Of a DNA stretch of 64,000 nt, positions 15,967-60,341 are shown piece after piece. The stretch spans positions 1,024,001 to 1,088,000 of the forward strand of contig CAWFQK010000004.1 of the NCBI GenBank assembly GCA_963817955.1, given 5' to 3'. Every line of letters begins with the position of its first letter. The stretch's first letter is position 1. The position numbers and the translations under genes were made by a program. Below the pieces are notes generated by a model. The model saw only the letters and a list, made by a program, of their open reading frames with translations, made no database searches and was not told the origin of the DNA. Source of the stretch: an uncultured Gemmatimonadaceae bacterium. GTDB lineage: Bacteria > Gemmatimonadota > Gemmatimonadetes > Gemmatimonadales > Gemmatimonadaceae.

Positions 15967-16075
15967 TCCAACTCAGATGGCGGCGGTGCATGGGGCGAAC
16001 AGGAACCATGCACCGCTCGATTTCGGAACTCGTTGGCAGCCGAGTTCAGCCGACATGGGGTCGCGTGGTTTTTTG

Positions 16076-16310
16076 AACGCAGAGGTCGCAGAGAACTGCA
16101 AGAGAACTGCAAGAGAACTACAAGAGAACTGAAAAGGGAACCGCGTATAGATGGGACGCTCGAGGCGGTTCACCATCCGGATGATCCCATCTTTCAGCTG
16201 CGCGCCTCCGAGGGTCACGACGGCATCATCCAAGACACCAGGATAACATCTTCTCGGTGTTCCTCTGCAGTTCTCTGCGTTCTCTTGCAGTTCTCTGCGA
16301 CCTCTGCGTT
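16076..16310. mobile_element. MITE-like element with 32-bp perfect inverted repeats enclosing a probable GxxExxY gene remnant
   Basis: AACGCAGAGGTCGCAGAGAACTGCAAGAGAAC (16076-16107) is the exact reverse complement of 16279-16310. The internal minus frame reads LGGAQLKDGIIRMVNRL. Confidence 0.6.
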
Positions 16311-16332
16311 GAAAGCTGTTCTATCGGTCGCA

Positions 16333-27073: not shown

Positions 27074-30000
27074 CTACCGTTTCGCCGCCTTGACCACGTT
27101 CCACTGCGCCATCACCGTCTTCGCATTCGCGCGTGCTTTCGCCGCGGCGTCTACCTGTGCCGCCGTTGGCGTCATGTCCGCGCCTTGCATGGACATTGCG
27201 GCGGCAAGCATGGCGTTGCTCACACTCTCGAGCGTCGGCGCCGGGGCGGCTGCCCCCCCACGTCCACCACCGGCACCGCCAGCGGCGGCGAAACCACCGC
27301 GACCGCGACGTCCGCCGGCTACAGCCGGCGGCGCCAGCGCTTCGACCTTCGCCTTGAGCGCGGCGGCCTCACTACTGGTGCTCTTGTCGAGCTCCGCCAC
27401 GAGTGCGCGCGCCTCGGTGTAGGCGACGTTCGCCGCGACCGCGCCGGCATACATCTCTTTGGTGAGTGCGGTAAGCTGCGCGAGACCGACGGCCGGTGTC
27501 TTGACGCGCGGGTCGAGCCGCAGCGTCAATGGCTGGCTATAGCTCTTGCCATCCACGGTGAGACGCACGGTATAGGCGCCCGGCGGCGCCCACGGCGAGT
27601 TCGGGAGAGTGTACGTGCGATGCGGCACCGCGCCCGTCGCGCCACCGCCGCCGCCGGCATTCGGATCTTCGGGAACGAGGGGATCGTAGTGCAGATCCCA
27701 ACTGAAGCGATGGAAGCCCTGCATGTTCGACAACCGGATCGGTGCCGCCGGCCAGTACAGCGGCAAGCCACAGTCGGGTGCTGTCGGCCGTTGTTGGCAC
27801 AGCTTGTTGTACGCCGCGGAGTCGAGCGCCGGATTCGGGTTGAGCATCGGATCGTCGCTCGAATAGTGGCGAACGATCTTGCCCGCCATGTCGAGAATCT
27901 CGAGTTTCACCGGCGTCGATACGTTCGAAGCGAGGGTGTAGTCGATGATGCCTCCCGGCATCGGATTCTCACCCGCCGGAACTTCCGGCGGCCACGGCGT
28001 GGGATCGTTCGTGGCGAAGCGGACGCGCACCGCTGTCGCCGGCTTGTACAGATACGCGTTCCCTGCCCGCTGCGACGCGGTTGCTTCGGCGAACTGACGC
28101 AGCGGCGTCAGGTTGTCGAGAATCCAGAATCCACGGCCGTGCGTGCCAGCCACCAGATCGGAACACAGGCAGGTGGTGTCATCCTTCACCTGGATATCGC
28201 GCACCGAGATCGCCGGCATGTCAGCCTTGAGCGACTGCCAGTGATCGCCGTCGTCGAACGACGCCCATACCTGGAGGTCGGTGGCGGCGTAGAGCAGCCC
28301 CTTCTTGTGCGGGTCCTCGCGAATCGAGTTCGCCGCCGCACCTGGTGCGATGCCCGTATTGATCTCCGTCCACGTCTTGCCGCCGTCGTGCGTGCGCCAG
28401 AAGTGCGGATTGAGATCGTCGAGGCGAAGCGTGTTCGCCGCGGCGTACGCGGTGAGATTGTCGAAGTGCCCGGCCTCGATGTTGAAGATGCGAGTCCACG
28501 GCTTGATCTGCGGCGGCGTGACGTTCGCCCAGTGCGCGCCACCGTCCATCGTCACTTGAATGAGCCCGTCATCCGAGCCGGTCCAGAGGATGTTGAGGCT
28601 GCGTGGTGACGGCGAGATCGCGGTGATGCTCCCTGCCGGCGCCGGCGTCACGGTGCTCGCGTACTTGCCCGCGGTCGCCGGTACCTCCCATGTCTGCCTG
28701 GTAAGGTCGGGGCTGATGCGCGTCCAGCTATGCGCGCGATCCGTGGACTTCCACACCACGTTCGACGCATAGAACAGCGTATTCTTGTCCACCGGCGACC
28801 AGTCGATCGGCATTGTCCGCACATTCCGGCCATACAGAGTTCCGCGCTGCTCGGCCGACGGGCCGACGTTCGTCGTCTGGCCGGTCTTGCGGTCGTAGAG
28901 CGACACGTTGGTGCGCATGCTGCCGTAGACCATGTCCGGATTCTTCGGATCGGACGCGGCGACGCCGTACTCCTGAATGTTCACCGGATGCCAATCGTGG
29001 AACGTGATCTCTCCATCCGGCGAACGGCTGTCAACACAGGCGGAGCCGGAATCCTGCTGCCCACCGCAGACGCGATACGCGAAGGTGTTGTCCGTCGACA
29101 CGTGGTACATGGCGGCCGTGGGCTGGTTGTACCAGTTGCTCCACGACGCACCGCGATTCGCCGAGATCACAGCGCCCTGGTCGGCGACCACAAGCAGGAT
29201 CTTCGGATCGTTCGGGTTGACCCACGCCTTTTGATAATCATCTCCGCCAGGCGCGCCGCGAACGGCTGACCAGGTCAGACCGCCGTCCTCGGTGCGCCAG
29301 AATACCGTGGAGGCGCTGTAGATCACGTTCTCGTTCTTCGGATCGACTACGATGGTCGGCAGGTCGCCGCCGCCGATGCGACCCAGCGGACGCGGGTCGC
29401 TTGGCCGCTGCCCGGTCGGATCGTTCGTGACGAGGTGCCAATGTTCGCCGGCATCGGTGGACTTGTAGAAGCCAACGACACCGGTCGTGTTGGCGGCACC
29501 CGCACCGCCGCGGCCACCGCGTCCGCCACCGGCGCCCGCGGCAGCCTGAGTCGGCGTGCCGGCGACGGTCGCATAGACGACATGCGGGTTGCTCGGTGCG
29601 ATCGCGAGGTTCGCCTGAATCACGCCCGGCAGACCTTCGGTGATCGGCTTCCACGTCGTGCCGCCATCAATCGACTTGAAGATGCCGTTGCCGGCGCCGC
29701 CAAATCCCTGGCCTTCAATGAAGCTCTGCTGCTGCTGCCAGAGCGTCGCGTAGACGGTGTTTGGGTCGGAGGGATCGATGCGGACGTCGTTGCCGCTCGT
29801 ATACTCGTCTTTATAGAGGACCTTCTGGAACGTCTGGCCGCCGTCGGTTGAGCGGAAGATGCCGCGCTCGGCGTTCGGTCCGTAGGGATGGCCAAGCGCG
29901 GCGACGAACAGCCGGTTCGGATCCTTGGGATCGACGTCGATCATCGAGATCATCTGCGATTCGCGCAGCCCGAGATGCGTCCAGGTCTTGCCGCCGTCGG

Positions 30001-30361
30001 TCGATTTGTAGACGCCATCGCCAACTGAGAGATCGGGACGAATGATCCCGGCGCCAGTGCCAACATAGATGATGTCCGGATTCGATGGCGCAACGGCAAT
30101 GGCCCCAATCGAACCGGTCGGCTGGCTGTCGAATAGCGGAGCCCAGGTCGAACCGTAGTCGGTGGAGCGCCAGACTCCGCCATTGTCGAAGCCGATGTAG
30201 AAGACGTTTGGCTGGCTCGGGACGCCGGCCAGGGCGCGAGCGCGACCGGCACGCGTGGGACCGATCGTACGCCAGTGCAGCGCAAGCGAATTGTCCTGCG
30301 CGGAGAGAACCGACGCAGAGACGGCGAGGAGGAGCGCGGAGCGGGACAGGAAGGAGCGCAC
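27074..30361 (-). CDS. Secreted VPS10/BNR-repeat glycosyl hydrolase-like protein
   Basis: GTG start, signal peptide, many S.DGG.TW Asp-boxes, WRTIGP..GR and THGRGFW. Confidence 0.88.
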   Translation of the reverse strand: MRSFLSRSALLLAVSASVLSAQDNSLALHWRTIGPTRAGRARALAGVPSQPNVFYIGFDNGGVWRSTDYGSTWAPLFDSQPTGSIGAIAVAPSNPDIIYVGTGAGIIRPDLSVGDGVYKSTDGGKTWTHLGLRESQMISMIDVDPKDPNRLFVAALGHPYGPNAERGIFRSTDGGQTFQKVLYKDEYTSGNDVRIDPSDPNTVYATLWQQQQSFIEGQGFGGAGNGIFKSIDGGTTWKPITEGLPGVIQANLAIAPSNPHVVYATVAGTPTQAAAGAGGGRGGRGGAGAANTTGVVGFYKSTDAGEHWHLVTNDPTGQRPSDPRPLGRIGGGDLPTIVVDPKNENVIYSASTVFWRTEDGGLTWSAVRGAPGGDDYQKAWVNPNDPKILLVVADQGAVISANRGASWSNWYNQPTAAMYHVSTDNTFAYRVCGGQQDSGSACVDSRSPDGEITFHDWHPVNIQEYGVAASDPKNPDMVYGSMRTNVSLYDRKTGQTTNVGPSAEQRGTLYGRNVRTMPIDWSPVDKNTLFYASNVVWKSTDRAHSWTRISPDLTRQTWEVPATAGKYASTVTPAPAGSITAISPSPRSLNILWTGSDDGLIQVTMDGGAHWANVTPPQIKPWTRIFNIEAGHFDNLTAYAAANTLRLDDLNPHFWRTHDGGKTWTEINTGIAPGAAANSIREDPHKKGLLYAATDLQVWASFDDGDHWQSLKADMPAISVRDIQVKDDTTCLCSDLVAGTHGRGFWILDNLTPLRQFAEATASQRAGNAYLYKPATAVRVRFATNDPTPWPPEVPAGENPMPGGIIDYTLASNVSTPVKLEILDMAGKIVRHYSSDDPMLNPNPALDSAAYNKLCQQRPTAPDCGLPLYWPAAPIRLSNMQGFHRFSWDLHYDPLVPEDPNAGGGGGATGAVPHRTYTLPNSPWAPPGAYTVRLTVDGKSYSQPLTLRLDPRVKTPAVGLAQLTALTKEMYAGAVAANVAYTEARALVAELDKSTSSEAAALKAKVEALAPPAVAGGRRGRGGFAAAGGAGGGRGGAAAPAPTLESVSNAMLAAAMSMQGADMTPTAAQVDAAAKARANAKTVMAQWNVVKAAKR

Positions 30362-30461
30362 GGGCAGTTTGCCTGGGTGTTGGATACGAGAAAATGAGTC
30401 GGGAAAGGGGTAGGGTTCAAGAGGTTGGGGTACGCGACCTCGTGGGGGGCGGGCGGGGCGG

Positions 30462-30583
30462 GGCGGGATGGTTGTTGGTGGCCAGGCAGGATCAAGCGAT
30501 CGGGATGGCGGGTGACTGTGATCAGTCATCAGTGTGTGGGTGCTCAGTCATCAGTGACTGAGGACCCCGACAGGTCGGGGACC
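30462..30583. repeat. Left arm of 122-bp inverted repeat flanking the four-helix-bundle gene
   Basis: Reverse complement of 31002-31123 with 6 mismatches by manual alignment. Confidence 0.95.
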
Positions 30584-30653
30584 CGGCATGGGTGTGCGCC
30601 GAAGTGGGATGAAATGTTGATGCTCCCAAGTGTCTCGGGTTGCAGAATGGGGA

Positions 30654-31034
30654 ATGCAAGATTTTCAGCGGCTATTGGTCTGGCGAAAGGCCCACGCGTT
30701 GGCACTGAACGTCGATCGGGCGACACAGGGCTTTTCGCGTTCGGGCTATGCCGGCCTCAAATCCCAGTTGACGCGTGCGGCCGATGGAACCCCCGCGAAC
30801 ATCGTCGAGGGTTGTGGGGCGGCGACCCAACGGGAGTTCGGCCGGTTCCTCGACATCGCGATCAAATCGACTTCCGAGACGCAGTACCACCTCATCTCAG
30901 CCCACGATCGCGGCCTGATTTCCGACGATGACTGGCGCTCGCTGACGAATGAAGCAACCCAAATTCGCCGAATGCTCTATGCCCTGCGGAAAAAGGTGCT
31001 CGGTCCCCGACCTGTCGGGGTGCTCAGTCACTGA
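30654..31034 (+). CDS. Four helix bundle protein (23S rRNA IVS protein / Avd-like family)
   Basis: MQDFQRLLVWRKAH...GLKSQLTRAA....NIVEG.....EF.RFL.IA..S..E is the family pattern. Confidence 0.9.
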   Translation: MQDFQRLLVWRKAHALALNVDRATQGFSRSGYAGLKSQLTRAADGTPANIVEGCGAATQREFGRFLDIAIKSTSETQYHLISAHDRGLISDDDWRSLTNEATQIRRMLYALRKKVLGPRPVGVLSH

Positions 31035-31123
31035 CGACTGAGCACCCACACACTGATGACTGATCACAGTCACCCGTCGTCCCGATCGCTTGATCCTGCC
31101 TGGCCACGAACAGCCATCCCGCC
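31002..31123. repeat. Right arm of 122-bp inverted repeat, containing the gene's stop codon
   Basis: Pairs with the left arm. Internal palindromes CCCCGAC-CT-GTCGGGG and CTCAGTCA/C...GACTGAG. Confidence 0.95.
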
Positions 31124-31142
31124 AGCCCGGCCCGCCAGGCTC

Positions 31143-31604
31143 TCACCCCGCCCGGTGCTTCGGCTGGTATGTTCCCACCTCCGACTGGAACGCCACCGCT
31201 AACCGATTCCACCCGTTAATGACGATCACCGCCATCGTCAGCTCGACGAGCTCCGCTTCCGCGAAGTGCTCGCGCGTCTCCTCATATAGCGCGTCGGGTA
31301 CGCCGGCACGTCCAATCTCCGTGACCACCTCCGCCCAAGCCAAGGCCGCGCGCTCCCGGGGCGTGAAGAATGGCGTCTCGCGCCACACCGGCACCGCGTA
31401 GATGCGCTGTTCCGTCTCGCCCTCGGCGCGCGCATCCTTGGTGTGCATGTCAATGCAGTAGGCGCAGCCGTTGACGTACGACGCGCGGATCTTCACGAGC
31501 TCGAGGAGCGTGCGCTCGAGGCCAGTCGAATTGACATAGTTCTCCATCGCGTACATCGCGCGATACGCTTCGGGGGCGGCGATCGAGTATTGAAGTCGCG
31601 TCAT
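31143..31604 (-). CDS. AhpD/carboxymuconolactone decarboxylase family protein (YdfG-like)
   Basis: ELVKIRAS.VNGCAYCIDMH, ERAALAW and INGWNR motifs, with a GGAGAG RBS. Confidence 0.92.
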   Translation of the reverse strand: MTRLQYSIAAPEAYRAMYAMENYVNSTGLERTLLELVKIRASYVNGCAYCIDMHTKDARAEGETEQRIYAVPVWRETPFFTPRERAALAWAEVVTEIGRAGVPDALYEETREHFAEAELVELTMAVIVINGWNRLAVAFQSEVGTYQPKHRAG

Positions 31605-31617
31605 CTCACTCTCCAGT

Positions 31618-31645
31618 GTCGTTGTACTCCGAAAGGAATGTGACA
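31618..31645 (-). promoter_or_regulatory. Candidate ECF41-type sigma promoter
   Basis: Minus strand TGTCACA-N17-CGAC just upstream of the AhpD-like gene. The ECF41 consensus as I recall it is TGTCACA-N16-CGTC. Confidence 0.5.
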
Positions 31646-31743
31646 ACCAGACGCCTGCCGGCGCTACAGCCACCACTCCTTGCCCCGACCGCAGGCGCCG
31701 ATAGCTTCATTGCATCTCGAACCGCCTCCCCTCGCTCAATCCC

Positions 31744-33558
31744 ATGTCACTTTCTCGCAGCCTCTCAGCCGCCGCGCTCGTCGCCGTAGCCGCGACCGCA
31801 GTGTCCGCGCAGCAGGCACCGACGTTCCCGACGAACAACCCCACGCTCCAGCGTATCTGGCGACTCGGCATGGACAGCTCGCATGCCCAGCCGCTCGCGC
31901 AAGCCCTGCTCGATTCCATCGGCCCGCGCCTCACCGGCGGTCCCGTGCTCCGCAGCGCCAGCGATTGGGCGATCAACACCTACAAGTCGTGGGGCATCGA
32001 CGCGAAGCGCGAGCAGTATGGCACCTGGCGCAGTTGGCGGCGCGGCGTGTCGCACATCGACCTCGTGGCGCCGCGCACGCGGTCGCTCGAGGGGATGATG
32101 CTCGCCTGGAGCCCTGGCACCAAGGGCAAGCCCGTCACCGCACAGGCGATCGTGTTGCCGAAATTCAAGGACAGCACGGAATTCGTGAAATGGCTGCCGC
32201 AGGCCAAAGGAAAGATCGTGCTCCTCTCCCCTGCGTGGCCCACGTGCCGTCCGAGTGAGGACTGGTACCGATGGGCAACACCGGCATCGATGGCTCGCAT
32301 GGACTCTTCCATCGCCGAGATGCAGCGTGAGTGGGCAGTGATGAACGACGCCGCCGGCCATCCGGACAGCACGAAGCTCTATCGTGGTACGGGCTACTCG
32401 CTGGCGCTCGGCACGGGCTCGCTCGGCATGCGTCTGGAGAAAGCGGGCGTCGCGGGCATGATCTCATCGCGTAACAAGCTGAGTGCGTTCCCCAATCCAT
32501 TCCAGGCGGATGGTGGCGGCCGCGGCGGTCGTGGTGGCGGTCGTGGTGGACGCGGCGGCCCGGCCGGCGGCGCGAGTGAGCGTGGCGGTGGCGGCCCGGG
32601 CGCGAACCTTCGTCCGACGCCGAGTGGCGAGCCGGGTCCTGCCGCAGCGCCAGTCGGCACGGGCGGTTGGGGCGTGATCGAAGTGTTCGAGACGTACAAC
32701 AAGACCGCACCCGCCGTGACGCTCACGTGCGAAGACTACGGTCTGGTGTACCGCCTCGCCGAGAACAAGCAGAAGCCGATGGTCCGCCTCGATCTCGATG
32801 CGCAGTTGCTGGGCGAACAGCCCGCGACCAACACCATCGCCATGATCAAGGGCACGGAGAAGCCAGACGAATACGTCGTCCTCTCGGCGCACTTCGACTC
32901 GTGGGATGGCTCGAGCGGCGCCACCGATAACGGCACCGGCACGGTGATGGCGATGGAAGCCATGCGAATTCTGAAACAAGTCTATCCCCATCCGAAGCGC
33001 ACGATCCTGGTCGGACACTGGGCGAGCGAGGAGCAGGGGCTGAACGGCTCGACGGCGTTCACCGAGGATCACCCCGAAGTGATGAAGGGATTGCAGGCGT
33101 TGTTCAATCAGGACAACGGCACGGGCCGCGTGCAGTCGCTGTCGGCCTCGGGTCTCACGGACATGGGCCATCACCTGAAGTCGTGGTATAATCAGCTCCC
33201 GAGCTTCTACACGGACAGCATGAGCCCGAACGTGGTGTCGTGGAGCTTCAACGACGTACCGGCTGGGAATCCGGGCGGCACAGACGGCGCGGTGTTCACG
33301 TGCAAGGGCACGCCGTCGTTCGGCATGGGCGCGGTGAACTGGAATTACACGGCCTACACGTGGCATACGAATCGCGACACGTATGACAAGATCGTGTTCG
33401 ACGATCTGAAGCACAACGCGACGTTGGCGGCGATGCTCGCGTACCTTGCGAGCGAAGATCCGACGTTCATCTCGCGCGAGAAATCTCCGGGCACGTGGCC
33501 CGCGAATTGGCCGGAGAACTGCGGCAAGGCGCCGCGCAAGACGCGTCCTCGTTTGTAA
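31744..33558 (+). CDS. Secreted M28 family peptidase (carboxypeptidase Q-like)
   Basis: IGPRLTG, AHFDSW, GATDNGTG, SEEQGL and WHT..DT motifs. Confidence 0.9.
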   Translation: MSLSRSLSAAALVAVAATAVSAQQAPTFPTNNPTLQRIWRLGMDSSHAQPLAQALLDSIGPRLTGGPVLRSASDWAINTYKSWGIDAKREQYGTWRSWRRGVSHIDLVAPRTRSLEGMMLAWSPGTKGKPVTAQAIVLPKFKDSTEFVKWLPQAKGKIVLLSPAWPTCRPSEDWYRWATPASMARMDSSIAEMQREWAVMNDAAGHPDSTKLYRGTGYSLALGTGSLGMRLEKAGVAGMISSRNKLSAFPNPFQADGGGRGGRGGGRGGRGGPAGGASERGGGGPGANLRPTPSGEPGPAAAPVGTGGWGVIEVFETYNKTAPAVTLTCEDYGLVYRLAENKQKPMVRLDLDAQLLGEQPATNTIAMIKGTEKPDEYVVLSAHFDSWDGSSGATDNGTGTVMAMEAMRILKQVYPHPKRTILVGHWASEEQGLNGSTAFTEDHPEVMKGLQALFNQDNGTGRVQSLSASGLTDMGHHLKSWYNQLPSFYTDSMSPNVVSWSFNDVPAGNPGGTDGAVFTCKGTPSFGMGAVNWNYTAYTWHTNRDTYDKIVFDDLKHNATLAAMLAYLASEDPTFISREKSPGTWPANWPENCGKAPRKTRPRL

Positions 33559-59387: not shown

Positions 59388-59486
59388 TCGTGCGATCAGT
59401 ACAGCAATCGCGCCGGGCGATTGCGACGGGGCCCCTGGCGACGGGGTCCCTGGCGTGCAGGCCACTCTCGGCGGGGGGTGCAGCGA

Positions 59487-59630
59487 GGATTGGGCTCCGG
59501 GCCGTGGACCGGTCGGATGCCGCTGGCTGCTCCGTAGCGGTCGGCCCGCCAGTCGGCGAGGTTCGAGTGTCCAGTTGTGAGTTGTGCGTTGCGAGTGTCC
59601 CGTGTCCCGTGTCCCCCGCCCGTGTCCCGT
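59487..59630 (-). repeat. Left arm of repeat family, inverted relative to 60206-60341
   Basis: Reverse complement reads GACACGG array, ACTCACA array, CTCGAACCTCGCCG, GCTACGGAGCAGCCAGCG, GGAG(C/T)CCAATCC. Confidence 0.88.
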
Positions 59631-59700
59631 CGCGCAGGTCAACCTGCGCGCGCTGACTCCATTCTCAGCTCTGCGCATCCAAACCAAGGGCACAGAACCA

Positions 59701-60177
59701 ATGCCACCGACCAACCTGCCCAACGCCGGCGTGAAGTTCCCGCCGCCGCTCGTTTACCTGCTCGGGCTGGCCGCGGCGCTGCTCATCAATCGCGCGGCGC
59801 CACTCGATCTCGCGGCGCCGGAACCACGATGGATGTTCCGGCTGGGGGGTTTCCTGGTCGTCGGCGGCCTGCTATTCGCCGCATCGGGGATCGTCACGTT
59901 TCGCCGGCATCATACGGCGATCATCCCCGTCCATCCGGCCACGACCATCGTGACCACGGGGCCATACGCCGTCACCCGCAATCCGATGTATATCGGATTG
60001 ATCATTTGTTATGTTGGCGGCGGTTTTCTGCTCGACACATGGTGGGCCTTCCTCCTGCTGCCAGTCGTGGTGCTGATCATTGCCCGGCAAGTCATCGCGC
60101 GCGAAGAGCGGTACCTGGCGAGCGCATTTGGCGCCGAGTACGACGCGTACCGCGCCCGTGTGCGACGCTGGATCTAA
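59701..60177 (+). CDS. Isoprenylcysteine carboxylmethyltransferase/PEMT family membrane protein
   Basis: PPP.VY, GPY..TRNPMY.G and REE.YL...FG.EY..Y...VRRW motifs. Confidence 0.92.
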   Translation: MPPTNLPNAGVKFPPPLVYLLGLAAALLINRAAPLDLAAPEPRWMFRLGGFLVVGGLLFAASGIVTFRRHHTAIIPVHPATTIVTTGPYAVTRNPMYIGLIICYVGGGFLLDTWWAFLLLPVVVLIIARQVIAREERYLASAFGAEYDAYRARVRRWI

Positions 60178-60205
60178 TGATCTGCGCGAGGGTTTGGTGA
60201 GGTGT

Positions 60206-60341
60206 GGGACACGGGACACGAGACACGGGACACGGGACACGAGACACTCACGACTCACAACTGAAAACTCGAACCTCGCCGCCCGCTACGGAGCAGCCAG
60301 CGACATCCAGCCGGCCAAAACACGGAGTCCAATCCCCGCCT
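60206..60341 (+). repeat. Right arm of repeat family
   Basis: GACACG(G/A) x5, ACTCAC(A/G), CTCGAACCTCGCCG, GCTACGGAGCAGCCAGCGACATCCAGCCGG, GGAGTCCAATCC. Confidence 0.88.

Follow-up and report, generated by a model that had tools for sequence, protein, structure and literature searches.

A four-helix-bundle gene enclosed by long inverted repeats outside rRNA in a Gemmatimonadaceae genome, and the gene-less hairpins that share its arms

The closest described counterparts of the element reported here are the ORF-bearing intervening sequences (IVS) of 23S rRNA, known from helix 45 of Coxiella burnetii and from Leptospira, which carry a gene of the same family (S23p = PF05635) as our cassette, according to the parts of PMC4990558 that deal with them. 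The Coxiella IVS, as portrayed in those parts, contains the S23p ORF with tandem heptamers beside it and is cut by RNase III (PMC4990558). The proposal that ORF-bearing IVS are mobile elements is an old one, and their origin has been open since the 1990s, as the same portions of the paper recount (PMC4990558); 23S IVS were also treated by Ralph and McClelland 1993, as cited there (PMC4990558). The PF05635 protein in turn resembles Avd, a protein of diversity-generating retroelements, in the relevant passages of PMC10053308. Both PF05635 and GxxExxY, the second gene family that enters this account, are very large families of unknown function. Two kinds of multi-copy repeat also bear comparison. 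REP and REPIN elements are intergenic hairpin repeats that occur in many copies, are enriched behind gene 3' ends, form lineage-specific families and go together with RAYT, a Y1 transposase. Bacterial MITEs and mobile insertion cassettes have terminal inverted repeats, include internal-deletion derivatives and also reach many copies. Hairpin cassettes that lie between ordinary genes offer a concrete and testable object for the function of the two gene families and for the origin of rRNA IVS, and the genome described here is a good case, with a lineage-specific burst of arms, both gene families and copying from arm to arm in the cassette itself.

The window analysed in this study, a stretch of 64,000 nt from an uncultured Gemmatimonadaceae bacterium, holds a cassette of about 689 bp that consists of two arms of about 136-145 nt, a short leader and one PF05635 gene (Table 1). 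Like the 23S IVS described in PMC4990558, the cassette has its gene in the loop of a long stem made by the ends of the element, short periodic (heptamer) repeats by the ORF and no transposase. The original prediction, made from the letters of the DNA, had described inverted arms of 122 bp with weaker pairing out to about 30448/31136, and this description holds: an inverted-repeat finder returns 30462-30588 / 30997-31123 (127 nt, complementarity 94%, spacing 408 nt), and a BLAST comparison of the region with its reverse complement returns 30448-30583 / 31002-31136 (136 nt, 93.4%). The nested palindromes that had been noticed in each arm are present as well, with CTCAGTCA-TCAG-TGACTGAG at 30543-30562 matched by a right-arm counterpart at 31023-31042, and CCCCGAC-AG-GTCGGGG at 30565-30580 matched by one at 31005-31020. 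The claim of a tract with 7-nt periodicity stands only in part, in that a lag of 7 gives the top self-match in both 61-nt arm tracts (0.48 and 0.44, most lags being about 0.25), whereas Tandem Repeats Finder called no 7-nt array in the arms; the periodicity is weak. When folded as RNA, either strand of the cassette is predicted to form the one long stem that had been foreseen, of about 145 bp with the gene in its loop, at -457.3 kcal/mol (z -24.7) for the + strand and -431.5 kcal/mol (z -29.8) for the - strand, and none of 20 shuffled cassette sequences folded as well as the real one on either strand. The absence of a target-site duplication and of a nearby reverse transcriptase is likewise confirmed, as no duplication is seen at the cassette ends, which are fuzzy, and the sole reverse transcriptase match of the genome (RVT_1) lies at C4:732178, 322 kb off. 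No Rfam family matches within 29500-32500.

Table 1. Coordinates of the cassette and its neighbours in the 64,000-nt window
Feature	Position	Strand	Basis and remarks
Sortilin/VPS10-BNR repeat protein gene	27074..30361	-	profile matches; putative GTG start
Left arm	30448..30588, core 30462-30588		repeat finder, BLAST; outer unique segment
Degenerate 7-nt-periodic tract of left arm	about 30505-30565
Leader, left arm to start codon	30589..30656	+
PF05635 / TIGR02436 four-helix-bundle gene, 125 aa (23S rRNA IVS protein family, Avd-like)	30657..31034	+	profile matches
Right arm	30997..31136		repeat finder, BLAST; local palindromes 31005-31020, 31023-31042
AhpD-family / carboxymuconolactone decarboxylase gene	31143..31676	-	profile matches; reads towards cassette

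The enclosed gene is of the four-helix-bundle (IVS/Avd-like) kind, as had been supposed, and its stop does lie in the right arm. Its product scores 99.9 bits against PF05635 (cut-off 33.8, E 1.1e-28) and 103.7 bits against TIGR02436, 'four helix bundle protein' (cut-off 24, E 6e-30), and the right arm contains the final 12 codons together with the stop. The nearest solved relatives by sequence are 2gsc_A (E 9.4e-9) and 2rld_A (E 2.6e-5), and five chains are deposited in each of the PDB entries 2gsc and 2rld. Simple scans revealed neither a sigma-70-like promoter in the leader nor a terminator-like site at the cassette, and no leader or promoter motif common to different cassettes is evident. 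The closest relative of the cassette protein (50% identity), encoded in a Gemmatimonadaceae MAG (L036:153-1194), is also enclosed, by arms of 279 nt at 88.5% whose sequence is unrelated to that of the arms here.

Since both neighbouring genes are on the - strand and the cassette gene is on the + strand, the cassette stands antisense between two co-directional genes; this placement, which had been pointed out before, is real and recurs at the ychF site considered below. The right arm ends 6 nt short of the stop codon of the AhpD-family gene. On the other side we place the start of the Sortilin gene at the GTG at 30361, 86 nt off the left arm, from the signal-peptide-like N-terminus that this start would give; a longer Sortilin ORF, reaching 30529, would run into the left arm. 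Among the ORFs that adjoin the cassette no recombinase gene is seen. Elsewhere in the window, positions 16072-16314 (G000:C4:1040072-1040314) hold another gene-less hairpin of the genome-wide network, with arms of 51 nt at 92% and a spacing of 143 nt. A low-identity inverted repeat (147 nt, 76%) at 59483-60339 of the window (G000:C4:1083483-1084339) surrounds a membrane-protein ORF of about 197 aa, which we take to be methyltransferase-like; this repeat may be due to chance or may be an old hairpin.

Hairpin enclosure is the rule for PF05635 and GxxExxY genes, in this genome and beyond. A search for inverted repeats around other members of the family, which had been put forward as a check on the original prediction, bears it out. 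Long inverted repeats surround four of the five PF05635 genes of this genome; the arms, mostly unrelated in sequence from one cassette to another, measure 136 nt (93%), 121 nt (96%), 48 nt (92%) and 167 nt (85%), and the fifth gene has no enclosing inverted repeat. Both PF13366/GxxExxY genes of the genome are enclosed too, by arms of 107-122 nt at 92%. For a comparison across phyla we sampled 59 PF05635 loci from Gemmatimonadota, Bacteroidota, Planctomycetota, Acidobacteriota and other phyla, 52 of which had at least 600 nt on both sides, and used 90 windows of the same loci, shifted by 1350 nt, as controls. A tight enclosing repeat of at least 30 bits is found at 34 of the 52 loci versus 1 of the 90 shifted windows, and at 40 bits the counts are 21/52 versus 1/90; an enclosing repeat of at least 30 bits is absent from 18 of the 52 homologues. 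The GxxExxY sample from this phylum began with 30 loci, of which 28 were left after omission of the own-genome L215 and of L207 (unpublished genome), and 24 of these had full flanks. Enclosing repeats of at least 30 bits surround 17 of the 24, against 5 of 47 control windows; the shift of these windows was just 850 nt, so that some may still overlap the elements tested. Across 151 sampled genomes of the phylum, PF05635 is present in 100, at 1-13 copies each. It occurs without PF13366 in 51 genomes and together with it in 49, PF13366 alone is found in 4 and neither family in 47, counts in which the E-value thresholds differ between the families, the genomes are related and the unpublished genome G091 is included. 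The 51 genomes that have PF05635 without PF13366 indicate that PF05635 cassettes can persist in the absence of GxxExxY.

At the ahpD-VPS10 junction itself we found no empty site; among 40 relatives and a metagenome collection, the AhpD-Sortilin neighbourhood is kept by none except L110, in which an epimerase gene lies between the AhpD-family and Sortilin genes. The best relatives of the AhpD-family protein show 71-79% identity, 79% being the best in the metagenome collection. A second junction gives a view of presence and absence. The space between ychF (TIGR00092, 1e-146) and a conserved neighbouring gene is occupied by a PF05635 cassette at seven loci from Gemmatimonadota. Like the window cassette, it is antisense to both flanking genes, and its orientation is identical in all seven species. 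In this genome both genes of the ychF junction are kept with just about 29 nt between them, that is, as an empty site. Arm sequence is common to five of the seven ychF-site cassettes; the remaining two resemble neither these five nor one another in their arms, although each is self-complementary. Such a pattern agrees with separate insertions at a single site and equally with arms that were replaced in full. Among the five orthologues, complementarity across species equals that within an element, so there is no evidence of compensation in that clade. At these loci the ychF start codon is 16-40 nt away from the beginning of the left arm, and therefore ychF may be transcribed through the hairpin there. 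Related cassettes are thus present or absent as blocks at a conserved junction. As a separate matter, the match between the ychF gene of this genome (G000:C4:875632-876730) and its orthologue is split over two overlapping frames (residues 1-252 and 250-366), which reflects either a frameshift or an assembly error.

Two findings go beyond the original prediction, namely that the arms of the cassette are those of a family of gene-less hairpins spread across the genome and that GxxExxY genes share the design. With the left arm as query, 25 matches are obtained in this genome, and the gene-less relatives with the same arms comprise about 8 full hairpins of about 375 bp and about 9 fragments. Searched with a 380-bp gene-less copy, this genome gives 37 matches, whereas 30 other genomes of the genus, several of them nearly complete, give none at E 1e-8 or better. 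The expansion of this arm family is lineage-specific. Among the gene-less copies an L and an R type of arm can be told apart, and both arms of the cassette are of the L type. The cassette arms share 95.5% identity with each other, 87-92% with other L arms and 67-81% with R arms. Because the two are closest to each other, one arm was copied from the other, or the two were homogenised, after the family had diversified, and such copying or homogenising is an event at the DNA level. The centre of about 100 nt in the gene-less copies that share the cassette arms is unrelated to the cassette gene, so that the cassette could stem from recombination between repeats and not from transposition. In other arm families of this genome the centres of gene-less hairpins retain pieces of GxxExxY or PF05635 genes, as internal-deletion derivatives would.

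A genome-wide survey of local inverted repeats (gap of at most 1100 nt) yielded 74 pairs, two of which surround the only two PF13366/GxxExxY genes, and single-linkage clustering placed 68 of these hairpins in one network and 4 in a second, the latter including the PF05635 cassette at C4:1616568. Hairpin modules are shared and nested among families. In two GxxExxY cassettes the homology runs exactly from a 25-nt terminal motif to its inverse and not past it, and one GxxExxY cassette is nested in the arms of a different heptamer family. Allowing at most 4 substitutions, the genome has 93 copies of this motif, GTCATCCTGAGCGAAGCGAAGGATC, with 13 inward-facing pairs that bound hairpins; GxxExxY cassettes and many gene-less hairpins have it as their outermost inverted ends (for example C2:315565-316239 and C6:111142-111543). 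The window cassette has no copy of it; one copy of the cassette's arm family does lie between a pair of such motifs, at C1:196126-196695. The two long motif pairs that we opened contain no transposase gene, on crude gene calls and in a search that was not exhaustive. To describe the placement of the hairpins we used a crude GC3-based gene caller, which called 82% of the genome coding. Of the 74 hairpins, 29 lie between convergent, 39 between co-directional and 6 between divergent genes, against a background of 18%, 64% and 18%; on these crude gene calls, the hairpins avoid divergent promoter regions and sit behind gene 3' ends.

Two further arrangements were observed among the hairpins of this genome. 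Two full 375-bp gene-less elements in inverted orientation (G000:C1:481035-481337 / 483367-483668; 88% over 304 nt) flank an ATPase-like gene of about 400 aa that adjoins a frameshifted paralogue, an arrangement that resembles a composite element; a gene next to this ATPase-like gene presumably encodes an AbiEii-type nucleotidyltransferase. The hairpin at G000:C9:32786-34031, whose 115-nt arms are built of heptamers (GAGACAC / CTCACAA units), has a fragment of a DDE_5 transposase (PF13546, 8.8e-17) as its centre, and an IS seems to have landed inside the hairpin.

The cassette had originally been taken for a mobile or RNA-processed unit. A self-contained, transposase-free hairpin of the rRNA-IVS type is what we find, and the RNA part of the proposal fares less well against the mismatches between arms. 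In 35 enclosing repeats, G:U-compatible mismatches number 56 in the sense and 58 in the antisense direction, beside 123 transversions and 24 gaps. Since such mismatches are practically equal on both strands, selection on an RNA stem is unsupported, and the missing wobble bias, together with the arm copying, suggests that the complementarity is of DNA-level origin. Any transcript running across the cassette would nonetheless fold into the stem.

We regard it as probable, with some reservation, that the cassette is an rRNA-IVS-type hairpin unit outside rRNA, insertable or selfish and without a recognisable transposase of its own. Its arms recur gene-less elsewhere in the genome, and for that reason it looks like an insertable DNA unit. 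The cassette would be, or would recently have been, selfish DNA that is moved by a mechanism without a recognisable encoded transposase and that settles behind gene 3' ends. As its ends pair, a read-through transcript of either strand would fold the cassette out as one long stem. By analogy with the Coxiella rRNA IVS, this stem would be an expected substrate of RNase III, and such cutting would make insertion within operons or rRNA tolerable. The cassette protein probably acts on the element's own nucleic acid, which is the weakest step of this scheme. Several points speak against this reading: the cassette has fuzzy ends, no target-site duplication and no copy of the 25-nt motif, its own junction gave no empty site, and 18 of 52 homologues have no enclosing repeat of at least 30 bits. 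Another is the ychF site, where the fixed orientation in 7/7 species and the same arms in 5/7 also fit a long-fixed and possibly domesticated gene. We further put forward, tentatively and as a doubtful though attractive extension, that PF05635 and GxxExxY cassettes form an undescribed class of transposase-free mobile element. Members of such a class would spread as foldback hairpins and regenerate their arms by copying one from the other. Their targets would be sites behind gene 3' ends, older hairpins and the tips of rRNA helices, so that ORF-bearing rRNA IVS would originate from them, and gene-less hairpins would be left behind in swarms. Mobility or maintenance of the element would then fall to its own factors, the small nuclease and the ring-forming four-helix-bundle protein.

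Other explanations have to be weighed against an insertable hairpin unit. The cassette could be a non-autonomous IS derivative (a MITE or mobile insertion cassette) that is moved in trans by a transposase encoded elsewhere in the genome, through recognition of its terminal inverted repeats, and carries the gene as a passenger. Multi-copy arms and gene-less forms agree with this, as do the 93 copies and 13 inward pairs of the 25-nt motif, one pair of which brackets a copy of the cassette's arm family. We nevertheless think it unlikely, as the window cassette has neither the motif nor a target-site duplication, the two long motif pairs opened hold no transposase on crude gene calls, arms of 50-280 nt of periodic repeats are unlike short IS ends, and the capture of passengers does not predict one design around two specific gene families across phyla. 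It is also improbable, in our judgement, that the hairpin belongs to the host, as an RNase III site, terminator or insulator for the enclosed gene or operon, with the gene-less copies as REP-like stabilisers of 3' ends. The burst of the arm family is lineage-specific and absent from 30 congeners, the arms have no G:U strand bias and appear to be replaced wholesale between related species, the ychF site is empty in this genome and a simple scan gives no terminator-like site. These observations stand against the retention of the cassette at the ychF junction in seven species, 16-40 nt from the ychF start and with possible read-through, against the 29 of 74 hairpins that lie between convergent genes where 18% is the background, and against the cutting of rRNA IVS stems by RNase III, which PMC4990558 reports.

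A gene flanked by long inverted arms of 93% identity offers a substrate for homologous inversion, and recombination between the arms could in principle flip the gene between antisense and sense relative to the operon. We consider an invertible segment very unlikely, however, with all seven ychF-site cassettes in one orientation and no recombinase gene among the adjoining ORFs. Hardly to be credited, finally, is that the cassette gene is the Avd of a diversity-generating retroelement or that the cassette is an assembly artefact. The resemblance of PF05635 to Avd (in the relevant part of PMC10053308) and the fact that palindromes can arise as assembly errors are outweighed by the distance of 322 kb to the only RVT_1 match, at C4:732178, and by the similar cassettes in dozens of independent assemblies. 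The insertable, rRNA-IVS-type hairpin unit is thus the reading that we retain.

In comparison with known systems, a diversity-generating retroelement is ruled out, as no reverse transcriptase with template and variable repeats adjoins the cassette and the sole RVT_1 match is the distant one; what Avd and the cassette protein have in common is a related four-helix-bundle fold family, as set out in the pertinent section of PMC10053308. MITE traits are shared by the cassette family in its terminal inverted repeats and many copies, whereas a target-site duplication is not apparent and a search, though not exhaustive, gave no matching transposase, and the arms here, unlike those of MITEs, are long periodic arrays that are mosaic or nested among families. 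The gene-less hairpins of this genome have the REP/REPIN traits of being intergenic, multi-copy, enriched at 3' ends and lineage-specific. A REPIN-RAYT system is nevertheless ruled out, since this 94% complete genome has 0 matches to Y1_Tnp (PF01797) and so no gene for a Y1 (HUH) transposase, and the hairpins here, unlike REP/REPIN, measure 250-700 bp with arms of 50-170 nt, some with a PF05635 or GxxExxY gene in the loop. An insertion into 23S rRNA is excluded by the AhpD-family and Sortilin neighbours and by the lack of an Rfam match in 29500-32500; in this genome both 23S genes measure 2975 nt (model 2925 positions) and are free of any large insert. The 23S IVS lie in helix 25 or 45 of 23S rRNA (PMC4990558), whereas our cassette lies between protein genes and antisense to host transcription, and it differs from them further in its gene-less multi-copy relatives. 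Excision by RNase III is on record for the IVS of Coxiella (PMC4990558). Full-text searches of the literature, subscription journals not covered, yielded no account of such cassettes outside rRNA or of gene-less derivatives. ORF-bearing 23S rRNA IVS are themselves already known, and what this window adds is the burst of arms, the antisense placement within an operon, the evidence of copying from arm types and the negative wobble test.
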